Shown here piece by piece: positions 2,066-37,047 of a stretch of DNA of 64,000 nt (position 1 is its first letter; every line of letters begins with the position of its first letter). The notes beneath the pieces were generated by a model that was not told the DNA's origin, did no database searches, and saw only the letters and a list, made by a program, of their open reading frames with translations. The position numbers and the translations under genes were made by a program. The stretch lies in NCBI GenBank assembly GCA_964612675.1, contig CAZTDD010000004.1:38386-102385 (forward strand). Reading direction: 5' to 3'. Source of the stretch: an uncultured bacterium (GTDB lineage Bacteria; Hinthialibacterota; Hinthialibacteria; Hinthialibacterales; JAKPRU01).

Positions 2066-2662
2066 TTACACCAGGATCTCTTCCACACGGATCTCCAGTT
2101 CCGAAAACGCCGTGGGAGAAAGTGCCTGCCCTTTTCTCAATATAGAGGTTTCTTCATACCCGGATTCGACAGGATTTCTATACACTTCAATGGTTTTATC
2201 CGGAAGATTGACAATCCACACCTCAGGGATTCCCGCTTTCGCATACAGCGGGATTTTTACCTCCCGATCATAACGAACCGAGGCGTCCGCGACCTCGACA
2301 ACCAACAGCACGTCGCTCGGTCCGGGATGCGACTCGGCGTAAAAATCATCCCGGGGTTTAAGTAGAGAAATATCCGGCTCGGGCTCGGAGAATTCGTCTA
2401 ACCGTAATGGATTCTGGACGTAGACTATGGCTTGTTTACCGAGCCGAAGAACCAACGTCTCATTCAAGCGACTTACACATGCTGCGTGCCGGCTGCCGAT
2501 TGGTGTCATCTGCACGATCTTCCCCTCGATAAGTTCGACCCGGTCATTCTCGGTCAAGATGCCCGAATCCGCCATTCGGTAGTATTCATCCACCGTAAAA
2601 GGCCGTCTTTGGAGTTCGACCGACATCGTTGGTCCCTCGTCGCTTGTCTTTTTTACCTGCAC
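2066..2662 (-). CDS. Uma2 family endonuclease (DUF820), tandem paralog 4 (divergent N-terminus)
   Basis: 198-aa ORF. Same core motifs (FTVDEYYRMADSGIL, EVADASVRYDREVKIPLYAKAGIPEVWIVNL), but the N-terminal 20 aa differ from the other three copies. Confidence 0.7.
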   Translation of the reverse strand: MQVKKTSDEGPTMSVELQRRPFTVDEYYRMADSGILTENDRVELIEGKIVQMTPIGSRHAACVSRLNETLVLRLGKQAIVYVQNPLRLDEFSEPEPDISLLKPRDDFYAESHPGPSDVLLVVEVADASVRYDREVKIPLYAKAGIPEVWIVNLPDKTIEVYRNPVESGYEETSILRKGQALSPTAFSELEIRVEEILV

Positions 2663-3506: not shown

Positions 3507-4181
3507 TTACTCCATCAAGTTCCCCGGTCCGAAAATGGCGATATCGCCGATGCTGACCAGGCCGTTGCTGGGATCGTAACGGAAGGTGCAGTCATCTCCA
3601 TTGTCGCCGCAGAGACCGTTTGTGTTGACATTTGGCCCGAACGACTTCACAAGCCACTTTGTGGGGCAACCATCTCGCTGGGCCTTCGATATCGCAGCGC
3701 TTCTCAGCAGGAACGGCGGGAAATAAGCCCAATAATCCGCACAGTGCGCATCGCGGAGCCCCTGATTACCGCCAATATCGGGATCGGTAGAGCCGAGCAC
3801 ATATCGGTACCAAGAGACCGTTGCGTAGGGTCCGCCGCCCTGACGTCCACCGCTGCTCAAATCCCAGTTCGGAGGAAAGATATCCTGGGGCACGGAGGTC
3901 AAATAGGCGATCGGTGTAGTCAAAGCATTCAACTTAAACGCCGGCGCGTAATTGTTATGGTCCAAAAAGTACTGTTCTTGAGCAGTAGCGATCGCTCGAA
4001 GGTCCGATTTGACATGGGCGATCTTCGCTCGAAGCTGTGCGTTTAGGAAATTTGGCACCGCGATGGCCGCGAGAATGCCGATAATTGCGACCACGATCAA
4101 CAACTCAATCAAAGTGAAGCCTTTTCTACTCTTCATCATTTTGTCCGCCTGAATCAGGAATGGATTTGTCGGTCTCTTCAT
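3507..4181 (-). CDS. Prepilin-type N-terminal cleavage/methylation domain protein (type IV pilin / T2SS pseudopilin-like, DUF1559-like)
   Basis: Contains the canonical prepilin motif KGFTLIELLIVVAIIGILAAIAVP. The likely true start is the second or third Met at 4139/4136, which gives the short leader MKSRKG. Gly/Asn/Asp-rich C-terminal domain with Cys pairs. Confidence 0.75.
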   Translation of the reverse strand: MKRPTNPFLIQADKMMKSRKGFTLIELLIVVAIIGILAAIAVPNFLNAQLRAKIAHVKSDLRAIATAQEQYFLDHNNYAPAFKLNALTTPIAYLTSVPQDIFPPNWDLSSGGRQGGGPYATVSWYRYVLGSTDPDIGGNQGLRDAHCADYWAYFPPFLLRSAAISKAQRDGCPTKWLVKSFGPNVNTNGLCGDNGDDCTFRYDPSNGLVSIGDIAIFGPGNLME

Positions 4182-4384
4182 AATATGCTAACCCAGATCG
4201 AAAATCCATCAAGACTCAACGAAAATCGAAAACACCGAGGGACAGGCTGTAAGCGAAGCAGAGTCAGCCAATGAATTTATGAATGAACCCTTTCCTCCGG
4301 GGTATCGTATAACAACAGTAGGAACCAGTTTCCAATTCCTGTAATCGATCTGCGAGTTTATCGACCTTCCAATCGAGGTATGAA

Positions 4385-7300
4385 TTGATGAAATCTCTGA
4401 CTCTCGTATCTATCGTACTCCTTGCGGCCGTTGCATTGATAGCAACTGTGTTCTTCATATCCGGACCGGAGAAACAGGTCCAAGAGGTCAGCCAGGCCCT
4501 GGAATCCACCGCTGTTCCTGAACCGACCGCGAACGCGGAAGTAACTCCGGAAGCGCCACCCACGGCAACTCCCACTCCCGCCCCGGCTCTTTCCGGCTAT
4601 GTAATCGACACGTCTGGAGAGGCTCTAGCAGGTGTCGTCGTGAAAGCCAGCGGTACGGAAGAAGTGGCCCAGACCGGTACGGATGGGTATTTCCAATTCA
4701 TGGAGGTCGACGGCGTTACCGCCACCCTGCAGGTCAATCACGAACCGTATTTCCCGACAACTCTAAAGAGCCTCGATCTGCCTACCGGCGATGCACTGTT
4801 CGTCTTGTGCCGGGGAGCGAGCATTCGCGGGAGAGTCACCAACATGCTTTCCCGCCCACAAGCAGGGATTCAGGTCGAACGCCGTTCCGCATCGGGGAAT
4901 TGGCAGGGACCGGCACCGCTCTATGAAAAGGCTGCCGAAAACGGTCTGACCGATGCTGCGTGGCAGGAGATTATCGAGCGAATTCCGAAAGATGCGCTTC
5001 ATCAGATCTGCCTGCTCCAATTCTCAGAAGAGGAATCCACAAGCACCGATGAAGACGGGCGGTATACGCTGGAGGGGCTGCGGCAAGGCTTTTATCACAT
5101 TCGAATCCGACATGGAGATCTGGTCGCAGAACCTCACGAGCGGCTGGTCGTCGATTGGGAAGAGAACCTTGACGGTATCGACTTTCGGCTCACGGCAGGA
5201 CACCACATCCGAGGCAAAGCATTCGAAGCCAAATCCGAGGCCCCGGTTCCCGGAGTCACCGTGAGCCACTACATCAGCGGAGCCACCGCCGTCACGGGTC
5301 AAGACGGGACCTATGCCCTCGGCCCTCTGAACCGCGGAAAATATCAACTAAACATCAACACTCCTCCGGGCTATCTGGTCGCCGATCTTTCGTTCGGTCA
5401 GCAGGGACCCGAGGCAAATGTCATCAATCAAGACGTCGAGGGAATCGACATCAAACTGGAAAAGGCAGGCACTGTCCGAGGACGTGTTGTTGACAGCCAG
5501 GGAAAGGGAGTTGCGAAAGCCAGGGTCTCACTTGCACTGGAATCGATTAATCCAATGACCATGGGACCGACGATGATGCGGCTCGGGCGGTTGATGGAAG
5601 GGAAAGAAGCCGACTCCGAAGGGCGATTCGAATTGACCGGGATCTCAGAAGGGAAAGGATACATCCTTCATGCAGCTGCATCCGAATACCCTCCCGGGAA
5701 ATATGGACCGCTCGACCTGGGATACGGCGAAACGAAAGAAGATATCGAGATTGTGCTGCCGGAGAGTGGTTCCGTGTACGGAAAAGTCACCGATAAGGAA
5801 GGCGAACCTGTGCCGGACTATCATGTGGTGTGCATTTCCGGGGACAACTACTTTGCGTCACTCACCCAATTCGCAAACACAGAGTTGATAAAGAAGGCCG
5901 TTACCGATCAAGACGGCAAATACTCCATCGAGTATGTGGCCGCGGGCAAGAATATCGTAGTCGTATCCCGCCGGGATGTTCCGGGCTCGGGAGGTGGAAT
6001 TCCTCAGAATCAGCAAGTTGTCGAGGTGGCCGGTCCCACCGAGGTCAATTTCACCATCGAGGTTCCGAAACTCGATGGAACCATTAGCGGCCGGATCACC
6101 GATAGCAAAGGAGAACCCGCCCGGGAAGCCGTAGCGCTCGCGATGCACAAGAACATGATGATGGTCCAACAGGAGGGCGGAAGCCAAGAGGGGAGAGTGG
6201 ATGAAGACGGCCAATATAAGATCGAGAATCTCATTGAAGGCACTGAATACAATGTGATGGTGTTGCGGGCCAGAGGACCGGTGAATCCGGCTCAGTTGTT
6301 CTCGAATGCCGTCACGAAGACAGCGAAGGCGTCCTCGGAAAACGTTGATTTCACACTGCCCGGCGAAGGCTCGATCTCGGGCCGTGTGGTGTACGAACTC
6401 ACCGGACGCCCCGTTCCCTCGTTCAGCATCTCCGCCACACGAAAAAGCGAAAACAATCCCATGGGAGCTTTTATAGGCATGATCGAGGGCATGTTCGGCG
6501 GGAAAGAGAGTGACGAATTCAACAGCGCCGACGGGTCCTTCCTCCTTGAAGATCTGCTTGCCGGTACGTACACCCTCGCTGTGAACGGCGAAGGATTCGC
6601 CGCTACGACTGTCGATGGGATCGGTGTGATCGAGGACCAGACCACCGAAGACATCGTCATCGAAGTAGAAGGCGGAGGCGGAGTCGAGGGAATCGTCACC
6701 AATGCCGCTACGAAAGCGCCGATCGAAGGGGCTCTGGTTACCGCATATCCCGGCGGGACCAACAGTGTTTTCTCCTTGATGGGGATGAACCTACCCGACC
6801 CAAACAAAGTCGAAACCAAAACCGGTCCGGATGGGAAGTTCTCGTTCATGGGACTGGACGAAGGCCAGGTGTCGCTAGAGGCCAGCCATCCGGAATATGC
6901 CCCCGGATCGGTAGGACCGGTATTCGTATCCAGTGCGGGAACCCAGGAAGTAGACATTCCGTTGAGCCAGGGCGGACGCATCGAAGGTCACGTCTACGAT
7001 TCTGACGGAACCCCACAGCCCGGGATTCAAATCAACATTGTCTCGGTAAACGGCGAACAGAACATATCCACGACTGCAGACAATGAAGGATTCTATTCGA
7101 AAGACAACGTTCCACCGGGTCACTATGTTGTGACTTTCCCGTTCATGGACATTTTCACGAGCCAGCACAACGGCAGTATGCAAGGCGTCGGGGAAGTCCA
7201 AAACGGCCAAACGACGGTAATCGACATCGGAGGAGGCCAGGGTGTCACTGTCACGGGAATCGTCCAAAGCGCAGGCCGGCCGGTCCCCGGTGTCCAGGTG

Positions 7301-8383
7301 GTGTTTATTCGCGGTTCCGAAGTGAATTTCATTCTGCCCGGCGGGACGCTTGGGGAAACAACAACAAACCCCGATGGGACCTACCGTGTCTCCGGCCTTG
7401 ACGGCGGACCGGCGAAGATCCTCATCGTCCGGATGAACGACCTAATGGCCGGACGGCCTCCGATGACGCTCCATCGCCAGGAGGTGGAACTGCCGCAAAG
7501 CGGCGAGATTCAAATCGATGTTCAGCTGCAGCTTTTGCCGCTCGGCGGCACGGTTCGCGACGCGGAAACCGGCGAACCGATCGCCGATGCGATGCTGATG
7601 ATGTTCCGCGATTTCAGCGGCGGTGAACGAACACCGTTCGAACTGCGGCCCGGCGGCGAAGGGGGAATCGGTACGGGGCAAGTCACGACCGGCGAGGACG
7701 GAAGGTATCTGTTTGAAGAAGTTGCCCCGGGAGAGTATGTCTTATCGTGCCGGGCGCAGGGGTACGGCCAACAGAGCATCGAAATCCGCGTAGAAGCCCA
7801 GCCCACCGGTGAGGTGGATATTCAAATGCCGAAGCAGGTCGGTGAGGTGTCAGGCCGCATCACCGACCGCCAGACAGGCCGGGCGGTTCAAGGCGCCATC
7901 GTCTATTTGATCGACCAGCACGGCCAAATGGTCATGCCCGCGGGTCTCGGCCCTATGGGCATGATGACCGACGAAGGCGGCCATTTCAAAATCGACAGCG
8001 TTGCCCCGGGTGTATATGCGCTGCTCGCAGGCGATCCCATGACGAATGCCTATGGCTGGACACGGATCGACGGTGTGGTCGCACAGGCGGGGGAAGTGAC
8101 GGACTTGGAGATTGAACTGCAGCGTGGTGCGTCGGTAGCGATCGGTCTTATGGATCCACAGGGGCAGCCGCTTATGGGGGCGGAGTGGCAGCTGTTCGAT
8201 GACCGGGGCACCTCAATGGCAGGGCAGACCATGGAGATCGGGAATACGCTACGGACGTCATTGGCTCCGGGACAGTATACGGCCCGTGCCGAGCTGCGTG
8301 GATTTCAATCCGTGGAATTTCCATTCACGATTGAAGAAGGACAGGCCAGTTTCGAGCAGGCGATTACAACCCAGCCGATGTAA
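4385..8383 (+). CDS. Giant (1332 aa) secreted or membrane-anchored protein with more than 10 carboxypeptidase-regulatory-like (CarbopepD_reg / transthyretin-like) beta-sandwich repeats
   Basis: N-terminal hydrophobic anchor LTLVSIVLLAAVALIATVFFI followed by a Pro/Thr/Ala linker. Many ~80-aa modules carry the recurring G.V.D..G.P..GA.V / DGxYxxxxLxxGxY signature. Confidence 0.6.
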   Translation: MMKSLTLVSIVLLAAVALIATVFFISGPEKQVQEVSQALESTAVPEPTANAEVTPEAPPTATPTPAPALSGYVIDTSGEALAGVVVKASGTEEVAQTGTDGYFQFMEVDGVTATLQVNHEPYFPTTLKSLDLPTGDALFVLCRGASIRGRVTNMLSRPQAGIQVERRSASGNWQGPAPLYEKAAENGLTDAAWQEIIERIPKDALHQICLLQFSEEESTSTDEDGRYTLEGLRQGFYHIRIRHGDLVAEPHERLVVDWEENLDGIDFRLTAGHHIRGKAFEAKSEAPVPGVTVSHYISGATAVTGQDGTYALGPLNRGKYQLNINTPPGYLVADLSFGQQGPEANVINQDVEGIDIKLEKAGTVRGRVVDSQGKGVAKARVSLALESINPMTMGPTMMRLGRLMEGKEADSEGRFELTGISEGKGYILHAAASEYPPGKYGPLDLGYGETKEDIEIVLPESGSVYGKVTDKEGEPVPDYHVVCISGDNYFASLTQFANTELIKKAVTDQDGKYSIEYVAAGKNIVVVSRRDVPGSGGGIPQNQQVVEVAGPTEVNFTIEVPKLDGTISGRITDSKGEPAREAVALAMHKNMMMVQQEGGSQEGRVDEDGQYKIENLIEGTEYNVMVLRARGPVNPAQLFSNAVTKTAKASSENVDFTLPGEGSISGRVVYELTGRPVPSFSISATRKSENNPMGAFIGMIEGMFGGKESDEFNSADGSFLLEDLLAGTYTLAVNGEGFAATTVDGIGVIEDQTTEDIVIEVEGGGGVEGIVTNAATKAPIEGALVTAYPGGTNSVFSLMGMNLPDPNKVETKTGPDGKFSFMGLDEGQVSLEASHPEYAPGSVGPVFVSSAGTQEVDIPLSQGGRIEGHVYDSDGTPQPGIQINIVSVNGEQNISTTADNEGFYSKDNVPPGHYVVTFPFMDIFTSQHNGSMQGVGEVQNGQTTVIDIGGGQGVTVTGIVQSAGRPVPGVQVVFIRGSEVNFILPGGTLGETTTNPDGTYRVSGLDGGPAKILIVRMNDLMAGRPPMTLHRQEVELPQSGEIQIDVQLQLLPLGGTVRDAETGEPIADAMLMMFRDFSGGERTPFELRPGGEGGIGTGQVTTGEDGRYLFEEVAPGEYVLSCRAQGYGQQSIEIRVEAQPTGEVDIQMPKQVGEVSGRITDRQTGRAVQGAIVYLIDQHGQMVMPAGLGPMGMMTDEGGHFKIDSVAPGVYALLAGDPMTNAYGWTRIDGVVAQAGEVTDLEIELQRGASVAIGLMDPQGQPLMGAEWQLFDDRGTSMAGQTMEIGNTLRTSLAPGQYTARAELRGFQSVEFPFTIEEGQASFEQAITTQPM

Positions 8384-9271: not shown

Positions 9272-10171
9272 ATGGCCGAACGATCCCCATATAATCTCTG
9301 TTTCTGCGGCTCGCTCGATCCTCCAACCAGGTACGAGGACTCGCGTTTTGTGGTCGTCCCGATTCCATACGACCACACGTGCACATACGGCACCGGTGCT
9401 CGTTTCGGCCCGCGTGCCATTCTCGAAGCCTCTGCGAACATCGAGTTGTACGACGAGTTCCTGGACTGCGAACCGTACCGCGCCGGCATCTGGACTCACG
9501 AATCGGTGGAACCGGTGGTCACCGGCCCAAAAGAGATGACCGAACGCGTGCGCTCGCTGATAGCGGGGCTTCTCGATGAGGGAAAAACCCCAGTCCTTTT
9601 GGGGGGAGAGCACAGCATTTCTCTCGGAGCGGTGGAGGCGTGTCGCCGGAAAGAACCGTCTCTCTCCGTTCTTGTTATCGATGCACACGCGGATCTTCGA
9701 CCCGAATACCAGGGGAGTCCTTACAGCCATGCGTGCGTACAAAGGCGTTTTCTGGATTTCGGTTGTTCGGTGGTCCAAATCGGGGTCCGAAGTCTTTCCG
9801 GGGAAGAGGCGAAGTACCGAAAAACCGTGCCGAGACTAGCAAGTCTAAGCGTCCAGGATTATCGTGAGATGATGCGAACGGATCCGGAGGATTTCCGTTC
9901 GATCCTCGGAGAGCATTTGACGGATAAGATTTATCTCAGTATCGATTTGGACGGTCTCGATCCGTCGATCATGCCGGCGACCGGTACACCGGAACCGGGT
10001 GGATTGCTCTGGGAAGAGATTACGGAAATTCTGACACAGGTTTGGCGGCGAGGGAGTATCGTCGGGGCGGATATTGTGGAATTGGAACCGATTCCAGGAA
10101 TGCGAGCCCCGGATGTACTCGCAGCCCGACTCACCTATCGGTTGATGGGCCTCGTCGCAGCAAAGAAATAA
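9272..10171 (+). CDS. speB: Agmatinase / ureohydrolase (arginase family)
   Basis: 299 aa. Arginase-family Mn-binding signatures are present: GGEHSIS, VLVIDAHADLRP and LSIDLDGLDPS. The N-terminal TYGTGARFGPRAI block is typical of agmatinases. Confidence 0.85.
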   Translation: MAERSPYNLCFCGSLDPPTRYEDSRFVVVPIPYDHTCTYGTGARFGPRAILEASANIELYDEFLDCEPYRAGIWTHESVEPVVTGPKEMTERVRSLIAGLLDEGKTPVLLGGEHSISLGAVEACRRKEPSLSVLVIDAHADLRPEYQGSPYSHACVQRRFLDFGCSVVQIGVRSLSGEEAKYRKTVPRLASLSVQDYREMMRTDPEDFRSILGEHLTDKIYLSIDLDGLDPSIMPATGTPEPGGLLWEEITEILTQVWRRGSIVGADIVELEPIPGMRAPDVLAARLTYRLMGLVAAKK

Positions 10172-10195
10172 ACAAGAAGAAGTGGGGGGAACCGA

Positions 10196-10759
10196 ATGGA
10201 CACCATTGGAAAACTCGTTCCGAGAAGAATGTTTTTGACAAAAGGCGTCGGCTGGCACAAAGAAGAGCTGCGCTCGTTCGAGATGGCGCTACGCGGCGCG
10301 GGGATCGAAAAATGTAACCTGGTGAATGTTTCGAGTATTCTCCCGCCGGGCTGCAAGATCATTCCCACGGACAAAGGAATCAAAGAACTCGTTCCGGGCC
10401 AGATCACCTATTGTGTGATGGCACGTTGTTCAACCAATGAGCCCCGCCGGAAATTGGCGGCCTCGATCGGTGTCGCGATCCCGCGAGCCAAAGGGACGTA
10501 CGGTTATCTGAGCGAACACCACGCCTTCGGGCAGTCCAAGCAGGAAGCGGGCGATTACGCCGAAGATTTGGCGGCGGCCATGCTCGCTACCACACTCGGT
10601 ATCGAATTCGATGAAGACAGCTCGTGGGACGAGAAGGAAGAGGTGTACCGCCTGTCAGGGAAAATCGTTGGCAGCAAAAACATCACTTCGGTAGCCGTGA
10701 ACAAACCCGGTGGATATACGACGGTGGTTGCGGCAGCCATTTTCTTGTTGGAACCCTAG
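10196..10759 (+). CDS. pdaD: Pyruvoyl-dependent arginine decarboxylase (PdaD/AaxB family)
   Basis: 187 aa. FEMALRGAGIEKCNLVNVSSILPPGCKIIP aligns with the archaeal PdaD self-cleavage region (..NVNLIRISS|IMPP..) and keeps the Ser-Ser processing site. It starts 25 bp downstream of speB on the same strand, making a putrescine pathway pair. Confidence 0.8.
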   Translation: MDTIGKLVPRRMFLTKGVGWHKEELRSFEMALRGAGIEKCNLVNVSSILPPGCKIIPTDKGIKELVPGQITYCVMARCSTNEPRRKLAASIGVAIPRAKGTYGYLSEHHAFGQSKQEAGDYAEDLAAAMLATTLGIEFDEDSSWDEKEEVYRLSGKIVGSKNITSVAVNKPGGYTTVVAAAIFLLEP

Positions 10760-10964: not shown

Positions 10965-12320
10965 TCATGCGTTCCGGCAGCCGGGCCGGACATACAAAGA
11001 CGAAAACTCCTCGGTAGTAAGGATGTCCCGGTCAAGCAGCTCCAAGCCTGTTTTTACCCGGACCGATTCGGCACGCGCCGCCCCAAGTTCATCCAGCTTA
11101 CGGTGGGGGCTGAACTCGTGGCGACATAGAACGGGGATCCCGTGAAGCGACAGTTCCAGGTTCCGTAGCCACTCGATCATTCTCTTCGCATTTTCCTGCA
11201 CCGTCCGTGCGTGATTGGTCAACAGCTGGTATTGCGCTGTTCCCCAGGATTCGGTGGTTCCCCAATTCCTTCCCAGCATAAACGGCGCGAGATGAAGGGC
11301 CGAAATGACCTGTTCGCTGATCGCCTGCAGACTTTCCTGCCAGCGTGTCCTACTCCCCGTCGGACCGATGTAGTCCACCTCGATATTGTCGAACGTAATG
11401 AAGTTGCTGTCGGGCTTTTTCTCTCTGAGCCGGTCTCGGATTTCGTTGAATTCTCTCGCGGTTCGTTCGTTGTACGCGGATGGCGACTCACCGGGCCGTA
11501 GAGAACCGGGAGTGTACTTCACATGAAGCGTGGGGTAGCCCGCGTTGTGTGAAGCGCGTGCAATATCGATGACCATCTGTTGTTGAATCCTGGCGATGAG
11601 AGGCACCGCCAAGAGCGGGGAGCGGCCGTACGGTGAGTCGCCTTCCGCATCGAGTCCGTAATAGAAGAATGACCCGGGATTCAGCTGAATCGTTGTTCCA
11701 TTGGGGAGAAGTTGGAAGGGCAGCAACCGGCGCTCGCGCTGCGTCCGTCGAAATCGAATCATAGCCGGATCGATGATATAAAACTTGTCGATCCGCTTGC
11801 GGTTATTCGACAGAACAACCTCCCCCGCAAAAGCCCCATAGGTGAATACGGAAAGGAAGAAGGAGCCAACAAGAGCCTGCATCCCCTGGCCTTTTACGTG
11901 TGTGAATTCGTGGATACGTTCGTCGAGATCTGCGAGGATCTGCCTGGCATGGTGGAGGTCGCTCTGGGAGCCGCCGTCGAAGTGGAGGCTTTGCGGTGTG
12001 TTACAGAGCCGAACCCACGCCCACACGCCCGCCGACACGTCCGGTATACGGTCGCGCAGATAACGCAGGACCGGATATAGGACGGAAGGATCGGGCTCCT
12101 GGACCGGTATCATTCCCGGTTCGGAGAGTGTTCCGGACGGTGGAAAAGGACTACTTGTGGCGGCGAGCGGATGCGTAGGCAACTGGTTGGGATCTGCGAC
12201 AGTGTCGAGAACACGGCTGGGTGGATGAGAATTCGACCGGCGCCGAAAGATGCGGGGTAGTGGATTCCACATGGCAGCTCCTGAGTGTAAAAAAAGCGTG
12301 ATTCCGAAGAGTCCCTTCAA
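10965..12320 (-). CDS. Hypothetical protein (451 aa), no firm family; weak portal-protein-like motifs
   Basis: Long ORF with good coding texture and a Pro-rich N-terminal region. The C-terminal blocks YYGLDAEGDSPYGRSPLLAVPLIA and SALHLAPFMLGRNWGT are reminiscent of HK97-type portal proteins, but this is a guess. No other phage genes lie nearby. Confidence 0.45.
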   Translation of the reverse strand: MKGLFGITLFLHSGAAMWNPLPRIFRRRSNSHPPSRVLDTVADPNQLPTHPLAATSSPFPPSGTLSEPGMIPVQEPDPSVLYPVLRYLRDRIPDVSAGVWAWVRLCNTPQSLHFDGGSQSDLHHARQILADLDERIHEFTHVKGQGMQALVGSFFLSVFTYGAFAGEVVLSNNRKRIDKFYIIDPAMIRFRRTQRERRLLPFQLLPNGTTIQLNPGSFFYYGLDAEGDSPYGRSPLLAVPLIARIQQQMVIDIARASHNAGYPTLHVKYTPGSLRPGESPSAYNERTAREFNEIRDRLREKKPDSNFITFDNIEVDYIGPTGSRTRWQESLQAISEQVISALHLAPFMLGRNWGTTESWGTAQYQLLTNHARTVQENAKRMIEWLRNLELSLHGIPVLCRHEFSPHRKLDELGAARAESVRVKTGLELLDRDILTTEEFSSLYVRPGCRNA

Positions 12321-31027: not shown

Positions 31028-32458
31028 ATGAACCTTTTGATCAATCCGAATCTGATGAAGCCGCCGGTGACGCCGGTGGCTCTCGATTATTTATCACAGG
31101 CTCTAGAGGAGGCAGGCATGCCGTCCAGAGTTTTGGATTTGGCTTTCGAATCCGAACCGTTGGAGGCAATCCGAGCGCAAATTACCGGCGAGGAGGATCT
31201 CGTTGGTGTCTCTGTGCGAAATATCGACGATTGTTATTACACCAGCCAGGATTTCTGCCTGGAGCGAACACGTGAGATTGTGAGGGAGATCAAAGCGCGT
31301 ACGAGCGCGCCGGTTTTTGTCGGTGGGATTGGCTACTCCATGTTCCCGAGAGAAACCCTCCATTTCCTGGAGGCGGATGCGGGTGTACCCGGTGAGGGAG
31401 AGGAAGTCCTCTGTGGGGCAGCACATCGTATCCGCGAAAAGCGAGATTGGCGGGAGACACCGGACCTTCTATTGAACGGACAAGGAGCAGATCAACCGCT
31501 CCGATTCAGTCGGGTGTCCAATTTGGCAGAGATGGATCTATCCGCTCGACGGGCTATCGACAACGCCCGCTACCTCCGCGAGGGAGCCAATGTAGGGTTC
31601 GAGACGAAACGCGGCTGCGACGGAACCTGTATTTTCTGTCCTGAACCGTACGCCAAAGGTACGCATATCCGAGTTCGCAACCCGGAAAATGTCGCACAGG
31701 AACTCGAAAATCTCTTGGCGCAGGGGGTAGACACGTTTCATACCTGCGACAGTGAGTTCAACCTGCCTCCCGGTCATGCCCTCAGTGTTTGTGAGGCGAT
31801 CATCGCGAGAGGTTTGGAGGACCGCATCGGTTGGTATGCCTATGCGACTCCGCACCCATTTCCCGAGGAACTGGCGGAGGCGATGCGCCGGGCGGGCTGT
31901 GTGGGAATCGACTTTGGGGTAGACCATGCGGATGACGAGATGCTGAGACGGCTCGGACGGAAGCATAGTGTGGAGCATTTGAGAGAAACCGCCGCATTGT
32001 GCCGGAAGCATGATATTCCCATTATGTACGATCTTCTTATCGGAGGACCGGGGGAAACACGCGACTCGATTCGGCGCACGATTGAGACACTGAAGACCAT
32101 TGCGCCGGAGCGGGTCGGCATCTCATTCGGCGCACGGGTTTACCCAAACACACCGTTGGGCCGAATGGTGGAACGCGAAGGATTTACGCCGGAAAATCCG
32201 AATTTGCGCGGTCAGATCCGGGACAATGAGTCGTTTTTACATCCTGTTTATTACGTTTCAGCGAAGATGGGAAAAGACGTCGGCGACTTCCTTCAGGATT
32301 TAATCGCAGGAGACGAACGCTTCCTGTTCGGCGGTACCGAGCAGAGCGAGCAGAACTACAACTACAATGACAATTCTGTGCTATCGAATGCGATTCGGGA
32401 GGGTGAGCGAGGAGCCTACTGGGATATTCTTCGGCGGCTGTCAAGCAGATCCACCTGA
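31028..32458 (+). CDS. B12-binding domain radical SAM protein (class B radical SAM)
   Basis: N-terminal cobalamin-binding Rossmann-like region (LDLAFESEPL...LVGVSV). Radical SAM cluster motif RGCDGTCIFCPEP (Cx3Cx2C). Downstream TIM-barrel-like region with GxIxxGxPGET. Its 3' end overlaps the 3' end of the convergent maf gene by 18 bp. Confidence 0.8.
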   Translation: MNLLINPNLMKPPVTPVALDYLSQALEEAGMPSRVLDLAFESEPLEAIRAQITGEEDLVGVSVRNIDDCYYTSQDFCLERTREIVREIKARTSAPVFVGGIGYSMFPRETLHFLEADAGVPGEGEEVLCGAAHRIREKRDWRETPDLLLNGQGADQPLRFSRVSNLAEMDLSARRAIDNARYLREGANVGFETKRGCDGTCIFCPEPYAKGTHIRVRNPENVAQELENLLAQGVDTFHTCDSEFNLPPGHALSVCEAIIARGLEDRIGWYAYATPHPFPEELAEAMRRAGCVGIDFGVDHADDEMLRRLGRKHSVEHLRETAALCRKHDIPIMYDLLIGGPGETRDSIRRTIETLKTIAPERVGISFGARVYPNTPLGRMVEREGFTPENPNLRGQIRDNESFLHPVYYVSAKMGKDVGDFLQDLIAGDERFLFGGTEQSEQNYNYNDNSVLSNAIREGERGAYWDILRRLSSRST

Positions 32459-34375
32459 CAATTCCGCACACACCTGATCCAGCAGGTTGATGAAGTGCTC
32501 CAGCATCATGTTCATTTCGCTTAGGATAAACTGGTACTTGTTGTACATGCAGCGAAGAAACGTGGCGGGAGACTCGTCCGGAAGCGGATCGGACCGTTGT
32601 CGCCGGTAATAGAGATACGTGACAGACGCGTCCAGGAAAGTATTGAATAGCGGATCCGCCAACATGGATTGCCACAGATCTTCGAGCCGATTCCACTCGT
32701 TCTGGGATTGCTGAGGAGTCAGCGTCCCGGACGATGCCAGTTCCGGCCATGATGCGATGTGTTGGAGAGCCTGTTCGGCGATTTGTTTCGAGTCCGCCAA
32801 TGTCGCCCGGCCTTTCTGTAACTCAGAAATAAGAGGCTCAACGGGCCGCTGAGGGGGCGGGCTCCGGAACCGTTCCAGGAACGGTGTCACATCTTCCGCA
32901 GGACCTAGCTGCAACATCGCCTCTTTGAAGGTCATGATCTCAGTACCTTGTTTCAGGGCACCCCCTTCCGTTGCATCGATTACACGAGCGCCGCTTTTCC
33001 GGATGTTCTGTTCGAGATCCCGGATGTACTGACGAAACGAGACGGATGTCGGGACTTCACCCCCGAAGTAGCCCGGCACAAACACAACTTGTCCGGTCTC
33101 ACTGTCCGCCTTACCTTCTTTCCCCCCGACAGTCATTGAACGGTCGGCTCCAACCGCCGACGTTGTACGGGAAACCGCTGCATCCGCGGCGTGACTGGTG
33201 CCCCCCTGCGGCGAAAAAGCGAGGTCCATTCCGATCAAGATAATCGGATCGCAGCCCAGATGTACCGCGATATTGAAGGCGATTTGACCGACATTCATAC
33301 CGCGGGGTACATGCCCGACCTCCCCCAGAATATTCTCAAGGACCTGAGACAAATGTTTGAGCAACGCGCCCTGTTCATCGACGAGCGGAAACAGATAGGG
33401 ATGACTGGGATACTTCCGGGTGATTCGCCAATGGGATTCCGGGTGAAATGCGAGAATGGTGTCATCAAGATCCTGAATTCGTTCAAAGTGGCTGAAATTC
33501 AGTTCCGTCGGATCGGCCGCGACGACGATATGAGGGCGGATACCGCGTTTCGATAACGTGTTCTGACTGGTGTCGGCACTGATAATGAGTCCCCGGTTGT
33601 TCAACTCTTTCAGCTCATCGATGTTCCTATCGAGCGACGGTCCGGCGGCGACGACGACCGCAGGCGTCCCCTGGGCGGCGTCGCGATACTCGGCGGGCAT
33701 TCGGCCGCGCCAGAAAGCGTGCAGGTTCATGATGATGTTCTGCTGGTTCGTCTGCCGTTGCCCGAGGACAGTCTTTGTGTTGACCCCGTCGAAGGTGACC
33801 ACGTCGACGATCTCTTTCGCAACATCGACATAATATTGGCGATTGATTTGTTGGGTTGGGGTATGATGAAGAATCTTGAAATTGTGGACCATGAAGTTCG
33901 TTCGGAGCGGTTTGAGGAGTTCGGGAAACACCTCGGAAGGTTCTCCGACGAAACAGAAACAAGGCTCCGCCCCAATCAGGCCACGGAGATCGCGCATGGA
34001 GAGTGCCAACCGAAAGAGGTGCGGATCGAACTCAACCAGGGCGATGCTCCGTGCGTGCGTTCCGAACCGGTCGAGGTAGCTGACGATGTGATAGCCCAAT
34101 CCCACGCCGAGAAAAACCAGGTTGATCGCTGAATTCACAGGCTCGTTTTCCGCCCACCGATCGGCTTCGCGAACCGGATCGTACACACTGCAGAGTGCCC
34201 GGGCCGAAGCGTCTCCGGGGGGATGATATCGAACCGCAGGCAGGCCGGATTTCGCCTCGATCAATTCCAAATATGGAGGCAGTCCCGGACCGAGGCCGGC
34301 AATTCGATTCGCCAGCTCGGGGTCGCGTTGGCTCAGGACTTCCAGGTTGGATTGCAGGATAGACGGCATGGGCAT
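32441..34375 (-). CDS. Motility-associated factor (Maf) family glycosyltransferase (DUF115), paralog 2
   Basis: 644 aa. LQSNLEVLSQRDPELANRI, PAVVVAAGPSLDRNIDELKELNNRGLIISADTS and ILIGMDLAFSP match the DUF115 architecture. Last gene of the minus-strand flagellar run. Confidence 0.7.
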   Translation of the reverse strand: MPMPSILQSNLEVLSQRDPELANRIAGLGPGLPPYLELIEAKSGLPAVRYHPPGDASARALCSVYDPVREADRWAENEPVNSAINLVFLGVGLGYHIVSYLDRFGTHARSIALVEFDPHLFRLALSMRDLRGLIGAEPCFCFVGEPSEVFPELLKPLRTNFMVHNFKILHHTPTQQINRQYYVDVAKEIVDVVTFDGVNTKTVLGQRQTNQQNIIMNLHAFWRGRMPAEYRDAAQGTPAVVVAAGPSLDRNIDELKELNNRGLIISADTSQNTLSKRGIRPHIVVAADPTELNFSHFERIQDLDDTILAFHPESHWRITRKYPSHPYLFPLVDEQGALLKHLSQVLENILGEVGHVPRGMNVGQIAFNIAVHLGCDPIILIGMDLAFSPQGGTSHAADAAVSRTTSAVGADRSMTVGGKEGKADSETGQVVFVPGYFGGEVPTSVSFRQYIRDLEQNIRKSGARVIDATEGGALKQGTEIMTFKEAMLQLGPAEDVTPFLERFRSPPPQRPVEPLISELQKGRATLADSKQIAEQALQHIASWPELASSGTLTPQQSQNEWNRLEDLWQSMLADPLFNTFLDASVTYLYYRRQRSDPLPDESPATFLRCMYNKYQFILSEMNMMLEHFINLLDQVCAELSGGSA

Positions 34376-34388
34376 TTGAATTGTTGTC

Positions 34389-35207
34389 TCACGGAGGTGG
34401 CATCACCTCTCCAATAGGGGCGTCGCGAGCGGGGTTGTCCGGAATCTCGAGTTCCCCTTCGATTGTCTCGCTTTCGAACGCCTCCAGGAGGACAATGGAG
34501 ACTCGCCGATTGAGTTGACGACCGTACGGCGTGTCATTTGGCGCGCGAGGGTGATTGGGACCCAGAGATTCCATGCTCAATCGATCGTGATCGATACGCA
34601 ATTCCGGGTTCGGATTCGTCTCTAGGTATTTCAATACATTGTACGCTCGCGCAGCGGCCAAATCGAAATTGTCTTTGTAAAAATGCGGTTGTCCTTCATT
34701 CCACACATTGTCCGTGTGACCCTCAATGCGAATCCGATTTGTAAAATCCGAAAGGATTTCCGCGAGCGGATCCAGCACAGCTTGGGCCGAAGCAGGGGGG
34801 ATCTCCGCACTCCCGGAGCGGAACAACACGTCATCCTGCACATCGAACCGGATACCTTCTTCGACCCCACGGATTTGGACTTGGTGGGTCTGCTCAACGG
34901 ATACCAACTTCTCCTTTGCCCGTTCCGCGATCGCTTCTTTCACCCGCTCGATAACTCGTTCATCCATCGTGGGCTCGGATTTCTGGGGCGTCATATTGAC
35001 AGGAGGAATGAACGACATATTGAACAGGTTCGGTACCCGTCCAAACGCCCCCTTGATAAACGCGATGGTCTGGACGAACTTTTTCTCCTCGATCGTCGAC
35101 ATCGCGAAGAGCAGAACGAAGAAACAGAGGAGCAGAGACATCATGTCCGAGAAGGTGCACATCCACTCGGGCGCTCCGCCGGATTGTTCTTCTTCTTTGG
35201 GTGGCAT
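34389..35207 (-). CDS. motB: Flagellar motor stator protein MotB (OmpA-like C-terminal domain), paralog 1
   Basis: GAPEWMCTFSDMMSLLLCFFVLLFAMS matches the MotB TM/plug region (..W.VTYADM.TLLLAFFV.L.A). The C-terminus has an OmpA-like peptidoglycan-binding block (RIRIEGHTDN...AAARAYNVLKYL...NRRVSIVL). Confidence 0.8.
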   Translation of the reverse strand: MPPKEEEQSGGAPEWMCTFSDMMSLLLCFFVLLFAMSTIEEKKFVQTIAFIKGAFGRVPNLFNMSFIPPVNMTPQKSEPTMDERVIERVKEAIAERAKEKLVSVEQTHQVQIRGVEEGIRFDVQDDVLFRSGSAEIPPASAQAVLDPLAEILSDFTNRIRIEGHTDNVWNEGQPHFYKDNFDLAAARAYNVLKYLETNPNPELRIDHDRLSMESLGPNHPRAPNDTPYGRQLNRRVSIVLLEAFESETIEGELEIPDNPARDAPIGEVMPPP

Positions 35208-35226
35208 GACTGTCCGCCTCTTTTAC

Positions 35227-36048
35227 TTATACCGGTTCTTCTACGATTACCGGGGTTGGTGTTGCGGTCGATTCCTCAGTATATATGTACCATGGCGCGT
35301 TTTCCGACGATTGCAGCACGACGATTTCGACCCGGCGTTGTTGAGATTGTCCTTCCGCGGTATCGGTCGGTATCGGTTTCCCTTTTTCGTCGGTCGCCGG
35401 CACCGTATCGGCGTATCCCTCATAGCTCATTCGGCTCGCGTCGATTGCTTCATAATCTCTGAAATAGGTCATGACGGCTCGCGCACGCGCCATGGAGAGT
35501 TCCCATTTGTCCGCATACAGTTTTTTCGGCGGCGACGGACCGGAATCCGCGTGACCGACGAATTTCAGCGGATTCCGCCGCAATTCTCTGAGGTTCTCGC
35601 CGATGTACTGAAGAAACGTATATGCTTCCGGTTTAATCTCTGCACTCCAGTGTTCAAACAAAGAATCGCCGAGTAAGGTGAACTGAATCCCCTTCTCGGT
35701 ACCTTTAATTGTCACGATATCGTCGAGCTTCAGTGACTTATATTTTTGTTTCAGGCGCGTCAGAACATCGTCTTTACCGTACGCTCTTTTCTTAATCAAT
35801 TGCGGATTCTTCGAGATTTCTTCAATCGTCTTCCGATCGCGGATGTTCGGGATAGCGTGCGGAGCAATCCGACCACCGAATGCATCCCGAAATGCGCCGG
35901 CCACCTGAATGAACTTCTTCTCCTCAATGGTCGACATAGCGAATAACAGAACGAAAAAGCAAAGGAGGAGGGACATCATGTCCGAGAAGGTACACATCCA
36001 TTCTGGCGCACCTGCTTTGGCTTCTTCTTTCTTTCGTTTCTCAGACAT
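35227..36048 (-). CDS. motB: Flagellar motor stator protein MotB, paralog 2
   Basis: The N-terminal 36 aa (GAPEWMCTFSDMMSLLLCFFVLLFAMSTIEEKKF) are identical to paralog 1 but differ synonymously in DNA. The periplasmic part diverges (FVGHADSG...MARARAVMTYF...RRVEIVVL). Confidence 0.8.
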   Translation of the reverse strand: MSEKRKKEEAKAGAPEWMCTFSDMMSLLLCFFVLLFAMSTIEEKKFIQVAGAFRDAFGGRIAPHAIPNIRDRKTIEEISKNPQLIKKRAYGKDDVLTRLKQKYKSLKLDDIVTIKGTEKGIQFTLLGDSLFEHWSAEIKPEAYTFLQYIGENLRELRRNPLKFVGHADSGPSPPKKLYADKWELSMARARAVMTYFRDYEAIDASRMSYEGYADTVPATDEKGKPIPTDTAEGQSQQRRVEIVVLQSSENAPWYIYTEESTATPTPVIVEEPV

Positions 36049-36076
36049 GATTCAGCCACCAAATCCGCTGTCCGTT

Positions 36077-36835
36077 TTATTCTTCTCGCGCCGGCCGAAT
36101 GCTCGGTGCCAGGAAGGCTAAGAGTTTCTGTTCCAGAATGCGCGGATTGTCCCCGGACTGAATCGACATGATTCCCTCGATGGCGACTTCTTTGATCAGG
36201 ATTTCTTCCGCTGTCCGCGCCTTCAATTTCCCGGCCACGGGGATGAAGGTTGTATTCGCCATGATGGCCCCGTACATCGTGGTCAGCAGCGCCACCGCCA
36301 TCGCGGGACCGATCGCCGACGGATCGTCCAGCTTCTGAAGCATCAGAACCAGCCCGACCAGCGTCCCGATCATTCCGAACGCCGGAGCCGCACTGCCCGC
36401 GTATTCGAAGATTTTCTGGCCGGTTTTGTGTCGATCTTCGATGAACGCGAGTTCTGTGTGAAGAATATCCTTAATCAACTCCGGCTCGACGCCGTCCACT
36501 GCGAGACGCAGGCCCACTCGAATGAAATCGTCCTGCACCTCATCCATCGAACTTTCGAGAGAGAGGATACCCTCGCGACGCGCCTTCTCCGAGAAACTCA
36601 CCAGCGTCGTTACAGTGTCGAGTGGCGATTGCGGCGTGGCGAACACCGCGTTCTTAACCACATTACCGATATTCAGCACCTGAGCTAACGGAAAATGAAC
36701 CAAGACGACAGAAAAGGTCCCGCCGACCACGATCATGATACTGGGCACATCGATGAACGACATGATCCCGCTACCCATCGCACCGGCGATCAATCCCAAC
36801 GCCAAGACTAATCCGACAACGGTTCCGACATCCAA
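36077..36835 (-). CDS. motA: Flagellar motor stator protein MotA (MotA/TolQ/ExbB proton channel family)
   Basis: 252 aa, four TM helices. REGILSLESSMDEVQDDFIRVGLRLAVDG, AFGMIGTLVGLVLML and MIEGIMSIQSGDNPRILEQKLLAFLAP align closely with Bacillus MotA. Confidence 0.8.
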   Translation of the reverse strand: MDVGTVVGLVLALGLIAGAMGSGIMSFIDVPSIMIVVGGTFSVVLVHFPLAQVLNIGNVVKNAVFATPQSPLDTVTTLVSFSEKARREGILSLESSMDEVQDDFIRVGLRLAVDGVEPELIKDILHTELAFIEDRHKTGQKIFEYAGSAAPAFGMIGTLVGLVLMLQKLDDPSAIGPAMAVALLTTMYGAIMANTTFIPVAGKLKARTAEEILIKEVAIEGIMSIQSGDNPRILEQKLLAFLAPSIRPAREE

Positions 36836-36837
36836 GG

Positions 36838-37047
36838 TTACGTCTCCTTTCTGGTGACTACCACACCGGACAAGACACCACGCCGGTAGGCCAGAATTCG
36901 TTCGACCAGATCATCCGCGGTTTCACGGACAATGAACTTCCGTCCTGAAAGTACCGTGATCACGGTATCGGGAGTAGATTCTATCGTTTCTATTAGATCC
37001 GCGTTGAGCAGATATTGTTGACCGCTGAATCGGGTGACGCGGATCAT
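36838..37047 (-). CDS. flbD: Flagellar protein FlbD
   Basis: The 69-aa sequence MIRVTRFSGQQYLLNADLIETIESTPDTVITVLSGRKFIVRETADDLVERILAYRR matches FlbD (MIKLTRLNG..F.LNA.LIE.IE..PDT.ITL..GKK..VKES.EEV). Confidence 0.75.
   Translation of the reverse strand: MIRVTRFSGQQYLLNADLIETIESTPDTVITVLSGRKFIVRETADDLVERILAYRRGVLSGVVVTRKET

Follow-up and report, generated by a model that had tools for sequence, protein, structure and literature searches.

One MotA and two MotB paralogs with an identical membrane segment: a conserved stator sub-operon in a Hinthialibacterota-like clade

Dual stators that comprise two complete A/B sets are known in various bacteria, for example PomAB and MotAB in Shewanella or MotAB and MotPS in Bacillus. 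In other systems, a single gene for a MotA/ExbB-like pentamer is found with two B paralogs that each have a single transmembrane (TM) helix, as for AglR with AglQ and AglS in Myxococcus and for exbB-exbD1-exbD2 operons. Here, we analyse a flagellar locus of the latter composition, one motA gene followed by two tandem motB genes (motB1 and motB2), located in a 64-kb stretch of DNA from an uncultured Hinthialibacterota-like bacterium (hereafter the window; positions are window coordinates unless a locus with an L-number is named). Like AglR-AglQ/AglS and exbB-exbD1-exbD2, it combines one A-type and two paralogous B-type subunits; unlike it, those systems are non-flagellar, and AglQ, AglS and ExbD lack an OmpA-like peptidoglycan-binding (PGB) domain. 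The closest described system is the motA/motB1/motB2 operon of Aquifex aeolicus (Takekawa et al. 2015, Sci Rep 5:12711, PMC4525482). It was noted there that the usual complement of other bacteria is one or two complete stator sets. The two Aquifex MotBs are 97% identical in their TM/N-terminal region and 23% in their periplasmic region, with different linkers, and chimeras joining the N-terminal TM region of either MotB to the periplasmic region of Escherichia coli MotB showed sodium-dependent function with Aquifex MotA (PMC4525482). The description of Candidatus Hinthialibacterota mentions flagella but not stator genes (PMC9324843).

The locus of the window resembles the Aquifex operon in four respects. 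One motA precedes two motBs in a single operon (here, as seen within the window); the MotBs share a near-identical N-terminus (34/34 residues here) and have diverged periplasmic parts (about 29% identity here, compared with 97% and 23% there); the linkers between the plug and the OmpA-like domain differ; and the stator is of the sodium type, which is experimental in Aquifex and predicted here from the threonines of MotA. Hence, the one-motA/two-motB architecture and its identity pattern have already been described, and partly tested, in A. aeolicus; the initial annotation of the window, which presented the arrangement as rarely described, was right about its rarity, Aquifex being a described case (PMC4525482). 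The two cases also differ: one comes from a hyperthermophilic member of the Aquificota and the other from an uncultured Hinthialibacterota-like bacterium, in which the pair is conserved phylum-wide and evolves in concert, features that the sections of PMC4525482 used here do not mention for Aquifex. What appears to be new is that the pair is conserved throughout the phylum, that MotB1 and MotB2 fall into separate clades and that a segment-limited concerted evolution with gene conversion takes place. The Hinthialibacterota-like and Aquifex duplications are likely to be of independent origin, because all other sampled lineages have a single motB.

The locus can also be compared with dual-stator systems. 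Like Pseudomonas MotAB/MotCD, Shewanella PomAB/MotAB and Bacillus MotAB/MotPS, it would provide more than one kind of stator per motor, with B paralogs that have different periplasmic domains. However, in dual-stator systems both subunits are duplicated, and the two sets are often distinguished by their coupling ion or their response to load, whereas here there is one MotA, the TM part of the two MotBs is identical and only the periplasmic module differs.

The two motB genes adjoin motA inside a flagellar gene block that extends on the minus strand from 43768 to 32441 (open reading frame (ORF) list and Pfam), in the order fliK-flgD-flgE-flbD-motA-motB1-motB2, which is the same in relatives (Table 1). 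The TTG start codon of motA lies 2 nucleotides (nt) past the flbD stop and is preceded by an AAGGAG Shine-Dalgarno sequence; the position of flbD is identical across related loci. The spacers are 28 nt between motA and motB1, 19 nt between motB1 and motB2 and 13 nt between motB2 and the Maf/MptE-like gene (maf), and the motB1/motB2 spacer contains an AAGAGG Shine-Dalgarno sequence ahead of motB2 but shows no obvious internal regulatory signal. Since the spacers are this short and Shine-Dalgarno sequences are present, the gene anatomy indicates that motA, motB1, motB2 and maf are almost certainly co-transcribed. Both motB ORFs are complete and a homology search found no further motA or motB homolog within the 64-kb window, so that the single MotA with two tandem MotBs reported by the initial annotation stands.

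Both proteins can be assigned to the flagellar stator B subunits on the basis of their TM aspartate, plug, OmpA domain and gene context. MotB1 matches the Pfam families MotB_plug (E 1.6e-21) and OmpA (E 1.1e-11), as does MotB2 (E 2.8e-18 and 2e-13, respectively), and the two proteins are 39% identical over 258 amino acids (aa; BLASTP, E 2e-38). The Asp of the FSDMM motif in the TM helix is invariant in 46 sequences. AlphaFold2 models of both proteins consist of a TM helix, a plug, a linker and a PGB domain, the last having a pLDDT (predicted local distance difference test) above 90 in MotB1. For both, Foldseek ranks periplasmic domains of MotS, PomB and MotB highest (target-normalised TM-score 0.87-0.92), MotS and PomB leading for MotB1. 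The periplasmic domains had been described as unrelated in sequence; on the contrary, they are homologous OmpA-like PGB domains, about 29% identical and with the same predicted fold. The residues of the GH[AT]D, xLxxxRA and NRRV motifs are conserved in both paralog groups, and we take the D and R residues of GH[AT]D, LxxxRA and NRRV to be peptidoglycan contacts. The PGB domain of MotB2, which yields 50 sequence matches in the PDB compared with 19 for MotB1, appears more canonical and PomB-like, and that of MotB1 more divergent. In MotB2, the PGB core is also preceded by a long helix that is conserved. Past its start, the plug helix has a sequence that is specific to each paralog and conserved among the members of its group, and the same holds for the linkers.

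The best PDB sequence matches of the window MotA are Clostridium sporogenes MotA and Vibrio PomA (E 1e-62 to 1e-56). Its alignment with Vibrio alginolyticus PomA is ungapped across TM3 and TM4, and it carries the equivalents of PomA T158, T185 and T186 as well as those of G154, A182 and A190. Hu et al. reported that T158, T185 and T186 are retained by all sodium-driven stators, that T158 and T185 are replaced by Ala in proton-driven ones and that the selectivity filter lies at least partly in the A subunit (PMC10374538). Because the PomA-type threonines are present in MotA, the stator is predicted to be of the sodium type, and because MotA is shared and the TM segments of the MotBs are identical, MotB1 and MotB2 should use the same coupling ion. 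The initial annotation had proposed alternative B subunits on one MotA, which fits the conserved operon; the difference in ion specificity that it offered as an example is unlikely with identical TM segments and, the selectivity residues being in the shared MotA, this candidate explanation was rejected. Any functional difference between MotB1 and MotB2 would have to lie in the distal plug, the linker or the PGB domain.

A protein search returned 446 relatives, among which 23 contig-matched protein pairs each comprise one MotB1-type and one MotB2-type protein. The tandem motB pair is present in all of the 15 related loci whose DNA was fetched, including that of Ca. Hinthialibacter antarcticus, in the order flgE-flbD-motA-motB1-motB2-maf, with one of the 15 (L106) lacking motA; the search of related genomes that had been suggested for this arrangement thus recovered the pair throughout. 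A single motB is found in 91/91 fetched loci from other lineages. Furthermore, a metagenome scan with a MotB alignment indicated that its most conserved peptides, CTFSDMM and LCFFVLLF, are widespread; of the 80 loci returned, most belong to gut Firmicutes, which have one motB each, and only two (L018 and L019) could be used. When a tree was built from the C-terminal region, the MotB1 orthologs formed one clade (282/300 bootstrap replicates, 94%) and so did the MotB2 orthologs (277/300, 92%). Monophyly of MotB1 plus MotB2 relative to outgroup MotBs is recovered in only 91/300 replicates, and MotB2 groups weakly with MotBs of Planctomycetota and Phycisphaerae. The MotB pair is therefore old and clade-wide, and it looks functional. 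The separate clades, together with the saturated synonymous sites described below, agree with the initial view of old paralogs rather than a recent duplication.

Taken together, we consider it fairly probable that the locus is a conserved flbD-motA-motB1-motB2 stator sub-operon, typical of the Hinthialibacterota-like clade, in which one MotA core is combined with two MotB periplasmic modules to give interchangeable stators. One MotA would serve two co-transcribed MotB paralogs, both of which would place the same TM helix, catalytic Asp and first plug turn into the MotA pentamer and would therefore share the same ion path and coupling ion. Differing in distal plug helix, linker and PGB domain, MotB1 and MotB2 would act as two periplasmic gating/anchoring modules, giving two interchangeable stator species, MotA5-(MotB1)2 and MotA5-(MotB2)2, that may be differently recruited or anchored. 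The gene content and homologies, the age, conservation and concerted evolution of the pair and the sodium-type residues of MotA are direct results of the analysis; we infer the co-expression of the genes, the pairing of both MotBs with MotA and the periplasmic specialisation.

Several points weigh against this proposal. In L106 (GCA_040755155.1, JBFMBP010000102.1; 2963-5154), motB1-motB2 come next after flbD, at a distance of 208 nt, and tblastn detected no motA in the 7.8-kb locus, whose sequence is devoid of Ns. In that genome, either motA was relocated or a MotA encoded elsewhere is used; hence, the coupling of the motB pair to an adjacent motA is not absolute. The genome beyond the 64-kb window may contain another motA or an additional stator set. 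MotB1 of the window subclade carries K for the usual N in the NWxL motif. Lastly, the strict co-occurrence of the two genes and their tight or overlapping junctions are compatible with homodimeric stators and with a heterodimer alike.

The latter would be an obligate MotB1/MotB2 heterodimer, MotA5-MotB1-MotB2, in which two different plug/linker/PGB arms form an asymmetric anchor and the shared TM segment is kept identical, through selection as well as gene conversion limited to it, because the chains exchange equivalent positions while MotA rotates around them. Both genes are indeed present in every clade locus examined, and their junctions are tight: the genes overlap by 4 nt in L099, lie 1 nt apart in L106 and L109 and are separated in the window by 19 nt that include a Shine-Dalgarno sequence. 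This would favour making the two proteins in equal amounts. With identical TM helices, the chains could alternate inside the MotA ring as it rotates, and the paralog-specific plug and linker sequences are both conserved. However, known stator B subunits are homodimers. Moreover, in Aquifex, a chimera that joins the TM region of either MotB alone to the PGB domain from E. coli can power rotation together with MotA, which suggests that these TM regions need no hetero-partner (PMC4525482). Such a heterodimer is thus conceivable but rather unlikely.

The peptide GAPEWMCTFSDMMSLLLCFFVLLFAMSTIEEKKF, 34 aa long, is exactly common to MotB1 and MotB2; the exact protein identity claimed by the initial annotation was found, over 34 residues instead of 36. 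It had been called a TM/plug segment, which holds for the TM helix: the segment takes in a short motif ahead of the TM helix, that helix itself including the catalytic Asp, and no more than the first turn of the plug, whose remaining helix is specific to each paralog. Between its two DNA copies there are 15 differences in 102 nt, all of them synonymous (14 third positions and one first position of a Leu codon), in line with the synonymous divergence initially noticed; the DNA strings quoted for it were located on the plus strand at 35151 and 35986. This segment is generally the most conserved part of MotB, with 50-85% identity to MotBs of other phyla. A 100% identity in paralogs that are about 29% identical elsewhere nevertheless exceeds this general baseline. 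L108, the closest relative, also shows 34/34 identity with 15 nt differences and, since the four cross-comparisons of the segment between the window and L108 all give 13-15 differences, the synonymous sites of the window segment are effectively saturated.

Selection on the two genes was assessed by comparison with L108, whose MotA is 97% identical. The nonsynonymous divergence (dN) is 0.077 for MotB1 and 0.068 for MotB2 and the synonymous divergence (dS) is saturated; because of this low dN with saturated dS, both paralogs are judged to be under strong purifying selection. With dS saturated even against the closest relative, omega (dN/dS) can only be bounded, roughly at less than 0.1 or lower, so that the dN/dS check proposed at the outset yielded a low dN for both paralogs and nothing finer than this bound. 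In place of classical dN/dS, codon identity was tested against the expectation from codon usage and against a C-terminal control. In the window segment, 15 codons are identical out of 29 degenerate sites, where the codon usage of the window predicts 11.0 (P=0.08), and the fraction of synonymous differences is 0.48 in the segment versus 0.69 in the C-terminal control (P=0.04-0.08). The window itself thus has no clear conversion tract and the signal is weak. Since its synonymous sites are saturated and replacement changes are absent, the identity of the window segment is attributed to purifying selection.

At the scale of the clade, the TM segment (28 residues) shows a within-genome MotB1-MotB2 identity of 0.964 across 23 genomes, a value reached in 0/20000 permutations, compared with ortholog identities between genomes of 0.914 for MotB1 and 0.906 for MotB2. 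The order is reversed in the C-terminal part, with 0.29 within genomes versus 0.47-0.52 between orthologs. Throughout the clade, the TM core hardly varies. Its rare changes (E to L, M to L, A to V, S to A, C to T, V to I, together with the A/S and M/L positions) co-vary, appearing jointly in the two paralogs of a genome. This amounts to a concerted evolution that is confined to the N-terminal segment. Moreover, four relatives show a significant excess of identical segment codons over the codon-usage expectation: L099 (22/26, i.e. 4 synonymous differences), L104 (18/24), L107 (16/21) and L001 (17/28). The segment of L107 includes a perfectly identical run of about 50 nt, and the conversion tract of L099 lies at 3528-3640 and 4364-4476 of that locus. 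The pooled fraction of synonymous differences is 0.45 in the segment versus 0.61 at identical-residue C-terminal control sites, and the nearest DNA neighbour is the own-genome paralog for 10/32 sequences. The excess of codon identity and the long identical runs in relatives indicate that episodic gene conversion, limited to the TM-coding segment, also homogenises it. The purifying selection on the MotA-interacting region that had been proposed from the window is supported by the low dN and holds for the window, but is incomplete as an explanation for the whole clade, given the gene conversion in these four relatives. In the proposed scenario, the single shared MotA would impose the purifying selection that chiefly preserves the N-terminal identity, and occasional segment-limited gene conversion would reinforce it across the clade.

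Conversely, the identity in the window could result solely from gene conversion of one N-terminus onto the other, without selection. The 50-nt perfect run in L107 and the 22/26 and 18/24 identical codons in L099 and L104 make conversion clear in relatives, and the window itself has the weak excess reported above (15 identical codons versus 11.0, differences of 0.48 versus 0.69 in the control). However, the accumulation of 15 synonymous differences and zero replacements in 34 codons requires purifying selection since any such event. The 34/34 identity with 15 differences in L108, the 13-15 differences and saturated synonymous sites of the cross-comparisons and the near invariance of the TM core throughout the clade also argue against conversion alone, which we regard as very unlikely.

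Equally improbable is that one MotB copy is redundant, decaying or devoted to a non-flagellar role, for instance as a generic OmpA-like anchor. MotB1 would be the candidate, with its less canonical PGB domain (19 PDB sequence matches versus 50 for MotB2) and the N to K replacement in its NWxL motif in the window subclade. However, both ORFs are intact, without the inactivating lesions that the initial annotation had envisaged, and both proteins keep the Asp-bearing TM helix and the plug. Furthermore, the two paralogs form separate clades conserved phylum-wide, with dN of about 0.07 and saturated dS, and both genes are inside the flagellar operon at every locus. Finally, an assembly artefact, a possibility raised at the outset, or a very recent duplication has a negligible probability, as 15 synonymous differences separate the two copies of the segment, identity elsewhere is only about 29%, and the same pair with the same flanks recurs in 15 further, independent assemblies that come from different samples.

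Table 1. Positions of the flagellar genes, of the two copies of the shared segment and of the Uma2 genes in the window
Feature	Position	Strand	Size or match
fliK	41207-43768	-	853 aa
flgD	40473-41165	-	
flgE, unusually long	37224-40307	-	1027 aa
flbD, first small gene of the stator sub-operon, directly 5' of motA	36838-37047	-	Pfam FlbD, E 3e-26
motA, sole stator A subunit	36077-36835	-	252 aa; Pfam MotA_ExbB, E 3e-29
motB1, first stator B paralog (TM helix, plug, linker, OmpA-like PGB domain)	35227-36048	-	273 aa
34-aa segment codons, motB1 copy	35911-36012	-	
motB2, second stator B paralog	34389-35207	-	272 aa
34-aa segment codons, motB2 copy	35076-35177	-	
Maf/MptE-like gene	32441-34375	-	
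Uma2 ORFs	242-838, 848-1447, 1457-2056, 2066-2662	-	full-length PF05685, E 1e-34 to 1e-36

The surroundings of the stator genes have other particularities. In most outgroup loci checked (L002-L015, several phyla), motB is followed by fliL, and Pfam FliL was detected in 7/8 of the proteins tested. In the clade, this place is taken by motB2 and then the Maf/MptE-like gene; a search of the window with outgroup FliL proteins gave no homolog below E 0.08. On its other side, this Maf-like gene is convergent with a gene for a B12-binding radical SAM protein (31028-32458, plus strand), their ends overlapping by 18 nt, and this neighbour is also found in L108. The large size of FlgE is clade-wide, with about 1000-1080 aa in the window, L099, L102, L103, L105, L107, L108 and L109, and is associated with a large insertion between D1 and the D2/C-terminal domains. 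FlgE of E. coli, with roughly 400 aa, is far shorter.

Elsewhere in the window, four tandem Uma2 ORFs of 198-199 aa, separated by 9-nt gaps (minus strand, 242-2662), form an unusual four-fold array; the Uma2 family PF05685 corresponds to a putative restriction endonuclease. The window also encodes a 1332-aa protein with 11 CarboxypepD_reg repeats (4385-8383, plus strand), an arginase-family gene beside a pyruvoyl-dependent arginine decarboxylase (9272-10759, plus strand) and a 451-aa ORF with a weak match to a Mu portal protein (10965-12320, minus strand; E 9e-6).

If both MotBs work with one MotA, this locus would be a second natural modular stator, apparently independent of that of Aquifex. 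Such a stator would have a fixed ion-conducting core and a periplasmic gating/anchoring module that exists in two versions. This bears on the recruitment and anchoring of stators, as well as on possible mixed MotB dimers. Moreover, the segment-limited concerted evolution of MotB1 and MotB2 can be viewed as showing the constraint that a shared single MotA partner imposes on its paralogous partners.

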